Below, piece after piece: positions 11,441 through 11,514 of a stretch of 64,000 nucleotides of DNA (position 1 is its first letter; the number at the start of each line of letters is the position of its first letter). Under the pieces are notes generated by a model, which saw nothing but the letters and a program-made list of their open reading frames with translations, was not told the origin of the DNA and did no database searches. Source of the stretch: a virus (lineage: Duplodnaviria; Heunggongvirae; Uroviricota; Caudoviricetes). The position numbers and the translations under genes were made by a program. The stretch lies in IMG/VR virus record IMGVR_UViG_3300031344_000001; one strand, written 5' to 3'.

Positions 11441-11469
11441 AAATCCAGGAGTCGCTCAGTAGCGGGTAG

Positions 11470-11514
11470 CTACGAGCGACTGCGACTAGACGAGAATGAG
11501 AAGAACGACGTCAT
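11470..11514 (-). promoter_or_regulatory. Ser-rich leader peptide MTSFFSFSSSRSRS with overlapping hairpin (11450..11481)
   Basis: 7 of 14 codons are Ser; directly upstream of the Ser tRNAs. Confidence 0.75.

Follow-up and report, generated by a model that had tools for sequence, protein, structure and literature searches.

Classical leader peptides, including trpL (14 amino acids), pheL (15 amino acids), hisL (16 amino acids), leuL, thrL and ilvL, are encoded by short open reading frames (ORFs) that are packed with the codons of one amino acid and overlap a hairpin's 5′ arm shortly before the genes they control. The residues outside the regulatory codons vary, and the quantity sensed is the decoding speed of the regulatory codons themselves. 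To our knowledge, and on the strength of literature searches, this codon-measuring logic has been described for amino-acid operons and synthetases alone, and no member of the classical set is known to us to be a serine leader. Phage tRNA genes, for their part, are usually regarded as constitutive supplements to codon usage or as spares against host anticodon nucleases. Here we describe a serine (Ser)-rich leader ORF with a hairpin, preceding tRNA-Ser genes in the IMG/VR record IMGVR_UViG_3300031344_000001 (Caudoviricetes), of which a stretch of 64,000 nucleotides, hereafter the window, was analyzed. With 14–16 codons in the window and its relatives, the ORF resembles the classical leaders in its size, in its concentration of codons for one amino acid, in the freedom of its other residues and in its overlap with a hairpin directly before the next genes, and the quantity that it would sense is again decoding speed. 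It differs in that tRNA genes and a release-factor gene, not biosynthetic enzymes, would be controlled, and in its phage setting. A leader ORF written in the codons of the next tRNA would mean that the phage measures their decoding and adjusts its own tRNA supply. Our literature searches returned no leader-peptide control of tRNA genes, no serine leader and nothing describing this unit.

The unit is ~80 nt long, lends itself to clear mutational predictions, and comprises, together with the tRNA-Ser genes that it precedes, the following elements.

11515..11523, minus strand: 9-nt leader AGUGUUUCG, between the CCA of the preceding tRNA-Met and the AUG
11470..11514, minus strand: leader ORF MTSFFSFSSSRSRS*, with the ATG at 11514-11512, 14 sense codons and the stop codon TAG at 11472-11470
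11443..11491, minus strand: extended hairpin, with an outer stem (11491..11486 with 11448..11443), an inner 13-bp stem (11481..11469 with 11463..11450) and a loop (11468..11464)
11355..11440, minus strand: tRNA-Ser(CGA) of the 8/4 shape (ARAGORN; Rfam tRNA-Sec 40.5 bits, below the gathering score of 47)
11264..11350, minus strand: tRNA-Ser(GCU) of the 8/4 shape (ARAGORN; Rfam tRNA-Sec 42.9 bits, below the gathering score of 47)

A preliminary description of this DNA had reported a Ser-rich ORF using both TCN and AGY codons, and the ORF is present as described, on the minus strand. Its codons, ATG ACG TCG TTC TTC TCA TTC TCG TCT AGT CGC AGT CGC TCG, include seven for Ser (TCG three times, TCA, TCT, and AGT twice). 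The ATG is placed 9 nt past the CCA of an initiator-like tRNA-Met with no strong Shine-Dalgarno (SD) sequence, again as had been described; the preceding A together with the leader gives only the pentamer AAGUG, which weakly resembles an SD and lies 5 nt before the AUG. Processing of the tRNA might create a near-leaderless mRNA at this point. The reported hairpin, with its TACCC loop and the last ORF codons in its 5′ arm, was likewise confirmed on the minus strand.

By itself, the window does not make the ORF compelling. In dinucleotide-preserving shuffles of its spacer, some ATG/GTG ORF of at least 10 codons appeared in ~16% (11–34% across the four spacers tested), and such an ORF with at least seven Ser codons in 0.5%; across the four spacers, the observed Ser count was reached in 0.2–0.5% of shuffles. 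Since the window has ~20 such spacers, its sequence alone is a weak case for a non-chance ORF, and the prior for a chance ORF was set at 70% before the comparison with relatives. The decisive evidence against chance comes from comparative analysis, namely the conservation of the ORF in 15 other distinct sequences.

Relatives were sought using the adjacent release factor (RF)-like protein as bait. A metagenome scan gave syntenic loci at 80–88% identity, and a large protein index held more than 100 RF-like relatives at 70–90% identity on contigs of up to 502 kb, nine of which were obtained with flanking DNA. The resulting 16 distinct spacers are those of the window, L084–L086, L088, L089, L091 and L164–L172 (L087 repeats L086); the relatives are metagenomic megaphage contigs belonging to a clade of giant soil and sediment phages. 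The same bait retrieved 80 huge-phage loci at no more than 65% identity from IMG/VR, with none syntenic among the 40 scanned for tRNAs, and exact-pattern scans of IMG/VR for the spacer element returned nothing relevant. A pattern scan of the GTDB species genomes gave two chance matches in protein-coding DNA, with no tRNA there.

All 16 sequences keep the ORF, with 14–16 codons, 6–9 Ser codons, an ATG start in 15 (GTG in L084) and a TAG stop in every case. The span from AUG to UAG is 45, 48 or 51 nt and thus always in frame, whereas the flanks vary regardless of frame: the leader is 5, 9, 10 or 13 nt long (13 nt in L084, 10 nt in L169 and 5 nt in L171), and the segment from the stop codon to the tRNA 8–35 nt. 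Ten of the 16 sequences share the leader block AAGTGTTTCG without change. Mean pairwise identity is 0.78 in the leader plus ORF, 0.68 in the 3′ part of tRNA-Met, 0.72 in tRNA-Ser and 0.53 in the 3′ arm of the hairpin. In every one of the 16 sequences the unit precedes an 8/4 tRNA-Ser, whose anticodon is CGA in the majority, GCU in L091 and UGA in L172. The association with an initiator tRNA, which the preliminary description had also drawn, holds in the window but is not universal, as the upstream tRNA in the very divergent L172 is tRNA-Glu, ~100 nt away, and not tRNA-Met.

What is conserved is the Ser content of one frame. Across the 16 sequences, the ORF frame contains 119 Ser codons among ~235. 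The other two frames, interrupted by stops in most cases, have 24 and 26, and Ser accounts for 5.3% of the codons in the window's genes. In the codon alignment, columns 6, 8, 10, 11, 12, 13, 14 and 16 are Ser in most or all sequences, with TCN and AGY mixed, whereas columns 3–5 and 9 are free to vary among F, L, H, R, C, P and T. The C-terminal S-R-S is invariant and an N-terminal M-T frequent. In L167 and L170, AGT CGC TCG TAG is replaced by TCG CGC AGT TAG, which keeps Ser-Arg-Ser-stop and is accompanied by compensatory changes in the stem (AGUCGC/GCGACU to UCGCGC/GCGCGA) and a changed loop (UCGUA to AGUUA). We then took five phylogenetically independent pairs and mutated one member at the positions where the pair differs: 13 changed codons had become Ser, versus 7.45 ± 1.5 expected (P = 7.5e-4; jointly with the creation of no new stop, P = 4e-4). 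Judged by these comparisons, the Ser codons of the ORF are under selection, and the retention of codon class with freedom of the other residues is, at the sequence level, the pattern of a classical leader peptide and not that of a folded peptide. The codons chosen are also skewed, as AGT makes up 23.5% of the Ser codons in the ORFs versus 4.7% in genes, TCA 16.8% versus 4.5%, and TCT 16.8% versus 6.2%; the commonest Ser codons in the phage genes are TCG (40% of Ser codons) and AGC (27.5%). As for the earlier claim that the downstream tRNAs serve both Ser boxes, the anticodon CGA reads UCG alone (three of the five TCN codons of the window ORF) and GCU reads AGY, so that the two boxes are both touched, but with UCA, UCU and UCC unread only ~61% of the ORF Ser codons are covered.

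The hairpin is conserved alongside the ORF. The 87-nt spacer of the window folds at −26.6 kcal/mol (z = −2.5 versus shuffles) into an inner stem of 13 bp with one bulged U and the TACCC loop, and an outer 6-bp stem, GUCUAG/CUGGAU. Its 5′ arm holds codons 8–14 plus the stop, and its base lies 2 nt from the +1 of tRNA-Ser. Hairpins of 11–25 bp are predicted in 16 of 16 sequences, and in minimum free energy (MFE) folds of fragments ending at +1 the base lies 1–5 nt from +1 in every one, though the distance from stop codon to tRNA varies four-fold. Compensatory pairs occur at position −11 (A-U, U-A or C-G), −10 (G-C or C-G) and −9 (U-A or G-C), and the outer stems are wholly different among relatives (GUCUAG/CUAGAC, CGAUCGUU/AACGAUCG and AGCUCAAGUA/UACUUG). 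The UAG sits in the 5-nt loop of the short forms and is paired by an added apical stem in the long forms. In addition, Ser accounts for ~69% of the codons in columns 8–16, which lie largely in the 5′ arm, versus 30% of the codons before them. The covariation was read from per-sequence folds indexed on the codon alignment; RNAalifold run on a MAFFT alignment did not recover the hairpin, because long and short forms misalign. An Rfam cmscan at E ≤ 1 over 11000-12800 gave only tmRNA, tRNA and tRNA-Sec-like matches, none of them in 11441-11527, and a decayed tRNA in the 87-nt spacer was ruled out, as there was no tRNA-like match at this threshold.

Starting from this anatomy, the selection on Ser codons, the hairpin covariation and the constant adjacency to tRNA-Ser, which the sequence comparison demonstrates, we infer that the ORF is translated, that ribosomes stall on it and thereby sense Ser decoding, and what the nature and sign of the output may be. 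We give about an even chance to the reading that this conserved regulatory unit is a ribosome-occupancy switch of the erm type acting on the maturation of tRNA-Ser. Ribosomes would translate the leader ORF; when Ser decoding is slow, with seryl-tRNA scarce, damaged or uncharged, a ribosome would dwell on the 5′ arm and keep the hairpin open, because the Ser codons lie in that arm. The 5′ leader of tRNA-Ser would then be unpaired and open to processing. Under fast decoding, the ribosome would terminate at the UAG and leave, the hairpin would re-form against the cleavage site, and the maturation of tRNA-Ser would be slowed or its stability changed. The net effect would be a homeostatic supply of the phage's own tRNA-Ser, which reads its commonest Ser codons. 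The +1 of a tRNA is the site of RNase P cleavage; since the hairpin abuts this site, its opening and closing should change the 5′ maturation or the stability of tRNA-Ser. A stricter version, in which the stalled ribosome unmasks the RNase P site and the phage confines the maturation of its 8/4 tRNA-Ser to times of failing serine decoding, as after cleavage or depletion of host tRNA-Ser, is less likely than not; if true, control would be exerted on tRNA processing, not on transcription.

Several observations weigh against this switch. The sixteen sequences group into about six lineages, which makes for a small effective sample. The tRNA-Ser pair leaves ~39% of the Ser codons (UCA, UCU and UCC) unread. 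Third codon positions are no more variable than the others (entropy sums of 10.6, 9.1 and 11.2), and the invariance of AGTCGCTCGTAG and CTCTCAT at the nucleotide level points to a strong constraint on the RNA, which may inflate the conservation of codons. The ORF has no strong SD sequence, while other genes here carry GGAGG. The short hairpin-to-tRNA distances come from fragments whose ends coincide with +1, an arrangement favoring end pairing. No alternative pairing was found that would turn the position of the ribosome into a defined output, and in masked folds the freed 3′ arm had no conserved pairing with the tRNA body.

Some of these points fit an alternative that we consider unlikely, in which the element is a purely structural or processing RNA (a 3′-end stabilizer, a nuclease entry site or an inter-tRNA insulator) and the ORF is never translated. 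Hairpin covariation, invariant nucleotide blocks without an excess of third-position changes, and the lack of a strong SD would all be expected of such an RNA, and the stems of the long forms, up to ~20 bp, are compatible with RNase III, but the short forms (9–12 bp, L084 and L169) are too short for this enzyme. Nor would an untranslated RNA account for a conserved AUG or GUG with an in-frame UAG over three ORF lengths, or for the swaps of Ser codons across boxes and the single open Ser-rich frame in all lineages, including L172.

We give a somewhat lower probability to a transcription attenuator of the classical trp/his type, in which the hairpin is a terminator and stalling at Ser codons favors an antiterminator. 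The leader ORF with cognate codons and the strong GC-rich hairpin immediately downstream suit this model, and 3–4 U follow the hairpin in 9 of the 16 sequences. However, a terminator scan found no intrinsic terminator at the hairpin. The number of U after the stem ranges from 0 to 4, and the run is short or absent in the other 7; in any case, U-runs ahead of +1 are common among the tRNA leaders of this phage in general (T at −1 in 24 of 40, and TTT or TTTT in many). The 16 sequences yielded no conserved antiterminator, and the one pairing seen was a weak 5-bp GAUGA:UC(A/G)UC. Moreover, most Ser codons lie inside the 5′ arm, where stalling blocks the hairpin without any antiterminator, while stalling upstream of the arm would allow termination, which is the wrong sign. 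The absence of a terminator, the generality of the U-runs and the failure to find an antiterminator therefore make a trp-style attenuator unlikely, and the missing terminator points to another output step, namely tRNA 5′ processing or stability. The core proposal of the preliminary description, a Ser leader ORF coupled to a hairpin and tRNA-Ser, is strongly supported by its conservation in 16 of 16 sequences and by the signature of Ser selection, but operation by classical attenuation is improbable.

The next alternative concerns the genes around the leader unit, and these are listed first.

11607..11635, minus strand: promoter-like element, TTGACG (11635..11630), 17 nt and TAGCTT (11612..11607), read from the sequence
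11524..11602, minus strand: initiator-like tRNA-Met(CAU) (ARAGORN 11602..11528; encoded CCA 11526-11524; Rfam tRNA 57 bits)
10777..11263, minus strand: RF1-like GGQ gene, last in the operon (Pfam RF-1 3.4e-28; SD GGAGG 11263..11259, ATG 11252)

The whole unit lies on the minus strand in the order promoter, initiator-like tRNA-Met, leader ORF, tRNA-Ser(CGA), tRNA-Ser(GCU) and RF1-like gene, with 4 nt between the two tRNA-Ser genes. The promoter-like element ends ~5–7 nt before the 5′ end of tRNA-Met, and its −35 shares bases with the TGA that ends an HNH-endonuclease ORF upstream. A consensus promoter scan did not report TTGACG-17-TAGCTT, and TAGCTT matches TATAAT at 3 of 6 positions; the −10 block TAG(C/T)TTCT is nevertheless kept in the aligned relatives. 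The anticodon arm of tRNA-Met is identical to that of bacterial tRNA-fMet, and A73-CCA is present. In the window, this tRNA has U1-A72, and the 3′ strand of its acceptor stem is longer by one U; Rfam aligns it with a one-base gap; L089 has the same U1-A72/extra-U form, and L086 the canonical C1xA72 initiator. In some relatives tRNA-Met is without an encoded CCA (...CGCTACGAAG). The HNH homing-endonuclease gene (window 11632-12155, minus strand), between the tmRNA and the tRNA-Met promoter, appears to be broken into two separate frames, 12155..12000 and 12003..11632, with a (GA)n tract (~12037-12052) close to the break.

The last gene of the operon is an unusual RF gene. In the relatives it is a complete two-frame gene with a +1 frameshift cassette of the prfB (RF2) type: GGAGG-NNN-CTT-TGA-C or -TAG-C occurs in 14 relatives (L084–L086, L088, L089, L091, L164–L167 and L169–L172), frame 0 encodes ~38–42 amino acids (M..SDSVVVEIRAAEGG..RRSL), and the +1 frame encodes 184–187 amino acids with the GGQ motif. 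TAG stands at the shift site in L084, L088 and L172 (by pattern search) and in L168 (by eye). RF domain 1 is missing from the protein of the relatives, whose P-x-T/N tripeptide is RF1-like; public gene calls break its gene into pieces of 171–173 amino acids. The window copy is 5′-truncated, with ~250 nt of the N-terminal part, including the frameshift site, gone and its SD and ATG (11252) fused out of frame (−1) to ...HRWQRTPPNEKRGR...GGQ (the HRWQR...GGQ frame); it is probably an inactive, 5′-deleted copy of the gene. In 14 relatives, the SD and ATG of the next gene lie a few nt past the 3′ end of the preceding tRNA-Ser, and the operon therefore carries a translated message together with tRNAs. 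We also examined whether the leader could be one long ORF read through its TAG into the RF frame, and rejected this possibility: the two frames coincide in the window, but their relation differs among relatives (0, 2, 0, 2, 1), and 15 of 52 window genes (29%) end in TAG as an ordinary stop.

The identity of this last gene raises an improbable alternative, a sensor of UAG termination and hence of RF1 activity, in which a ribosome waiting at the apical UAG opens the hairpin and raises expression of the operon that ends in the RF1-like gene. TAG is used by all 16 leader ORFs despite changing neighbors (TCGTAG, AGTTAG, TCTTAG and TCCTAG) and despite serving as just 29% of gene stops here, and the factor encoded at the end of the operon is of the RF1 type (PxT-like), with TAG at its own +1 shift site in four relatives. 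Yet TAG may be fixed by the hairpin, which has TA in the loop and G in the stem, and in the window the leader is intact although the RF gene is truncated. A UAG sensor would also leave the selection for Ser and the bias toward rare codons unexplained.

Even less probable, in our estimation, is a trans-acting small Ser/Arg-rich peptide (consensus M-T-x-x-x-S-(S)-x-S-S-S-x-S-R-S), encoded by a mini-mRNA that is cut out by tRNA processing and stabilized by the hairpin. The ORF with its invariant C-terminal S-R-S and frequent N-terminal M-T is conserved, and tRNA punctuation would free an RNA of ~80 nt with a hairpin at its end; leader peptides that act in trans have precedents, such as peTrpL (PMC7298713). 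On the other hand, most positions are kept not as residues but only as Ser count and codon class, 14 low-complexity residues are unlikely to fold or bind specifically, and the constant linkage to tRNA-Ser would be left unexplained. A chance ORF in a pyrimidine-rich spacer, for which the frequency of ORFs in shuffled spacers and the many spacers in the window had spoken, is effectively refuted by the rarity of shuffles with as many Ser codons and by the retention of the ORF, with signatures of selection, in 16 sequences of about six lineages.

Taken together, the spacer is best explained as a conserved regulatory unit within a mixed tRNA-mRNA operon, carried by a clade of megaphages with GC-rich DNA. 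The window has a G+C content of 58–70% and 41 tRNA genes plus a tmRNA, and its further phage-like genes include those for homing endonucleases and for an ATPase with an intein. Its source contig in the protein index is 461,400 bp long, and the genome is therefore of the megaphage type; searches for near relatives in known-phage and plasmid collections gave only tRNA-Met matches, so that the genome is absent there. The neighbors of the operon include the tmRNA and a Pth2-like gene, and the unit, lying in an operon that combines an initiator tRNA, tRNA-Ser shaped like tRNA-Sec and a frameshift-controlled RF, may belong to a translation-rescue or counter-defense module. Through the erm-type switch favored above, the Ser leader probably gives ribosomes a means of reporting on the reading of serine codons, and control of a tRNA gene in this manner would be new.

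Small ORFs matched to the next tRNA also occur elsewhere. At 38855-38900 of the window (minus strand), a Lys mini-ORF (ORF 38881..38855; ATG AAG AAA CGA AAA CTC TTG ACG CAC TAA, MKKRKLLTH) with three Lys codons lies just after tRNA-Tyr and ends 1 nt before the +1 of tRNA-Lys(UUU), in an AT-rich island of a 65% GC genome. It has a strong SD, AAGGAG, 6 nt before the ATG, and this SD can pair with CUCUU. A pattern scan of viral contigs for this mini-ORF gave 0 matches, and a GTDB protein scan for the gene beside the Tyr-Lys tRNAs found nothing. Among the collected loci (480 tRNAs), nine cognate-rich short ORFs (sORFs) precede non-Ser tRNAs, versus 3.0 ± 1.6 with shuffled tRNA labels (P = 0.002); they include, in L112, a Gln-rich sORF that lies 5 nt ahead of tRNA-Gln and, in L013, an Arg sORF written wholly in AGR codons that precedes tRNA-Arg(UCU). 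The latter, with six AGR codons, is the best Arg case and is not kept in the related L014 and L026, and we therefore do not rely on the generality of cognate-rich sORFs.

The tRNAs downstream of the leader belong to a described type. For both genes tRNA-Sec is the highest-scoring Rfam model, and in its alignments the two tRNA-Ser have an 8-bp acceptor, a 6-bp D stem, a 4-nt D loop, a long variable arm, a short T stem and G73, and thus the 8/4 arrangement, with just three clear pairs in the T stem of tRNA-Ser(CGA). ARAGORN misses several of the tRNA-Ser homologues in relatives (e.g., L084, L089 and L166). In Mukai et al. (Nucleic Acids Res 2017, PMC5389517), 8/4 tRNA-Ser are described in phage tRNA clusters, and the (8/4) tRNA-Ser and allo-tRNA presented there share with ours the 8/4 arrangement, the 6-bp D stem, the long variable arm, G73, Ser anticodons and location in a phage cluster; a term search of the same article did not bring up a leader ORF or a hairpin preceding these genes. 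Serine codons can also be monitored by other means, as a serine-codon sensor working without a leader has been described in Bacillus subtilis (PMC3862929).

Finally, we compared the unit with known regulatory systems. Unlike the classical leaders, it has no terminator U-tract, no recognizable antiterminator or 1:2 pause hairpin and no strong SD, and most of its regulatory codons lie inside the hairpin arm. The E. coli operons thrU-tyrU-glyT-thrT-tufB and tyrT-tpr resemble it in that tRNAs are co-transcribed with a message and tRNA processing sets the mRNA ends; we know of no codon-matched leader in either, nor of a conserved hairpin abutting the next tRNA. With pheST (pheM leader) and the T-box riboswitches it shares the principle that the state of a tRNA feeds back on translation-machinery genes for the same amino acid, but pheM is a terminator-based attenuator of a synthetase, T-boxes bind tRNA directly without a ribosome, and neither controls a tRNA gene. 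The favored geometry is that of translational attenuation in ermC/ermB and cat, where a ribosome stalled on a short ORF occupies one arm of a hairpin and frees the other. In those systems the stall depends on a drug or peptide and exposes a ribosome binding site, whereas in the phage operon the stall would depend on tRNA and would expose the 5′ leader of a pre-tRNA with its RNase P site.

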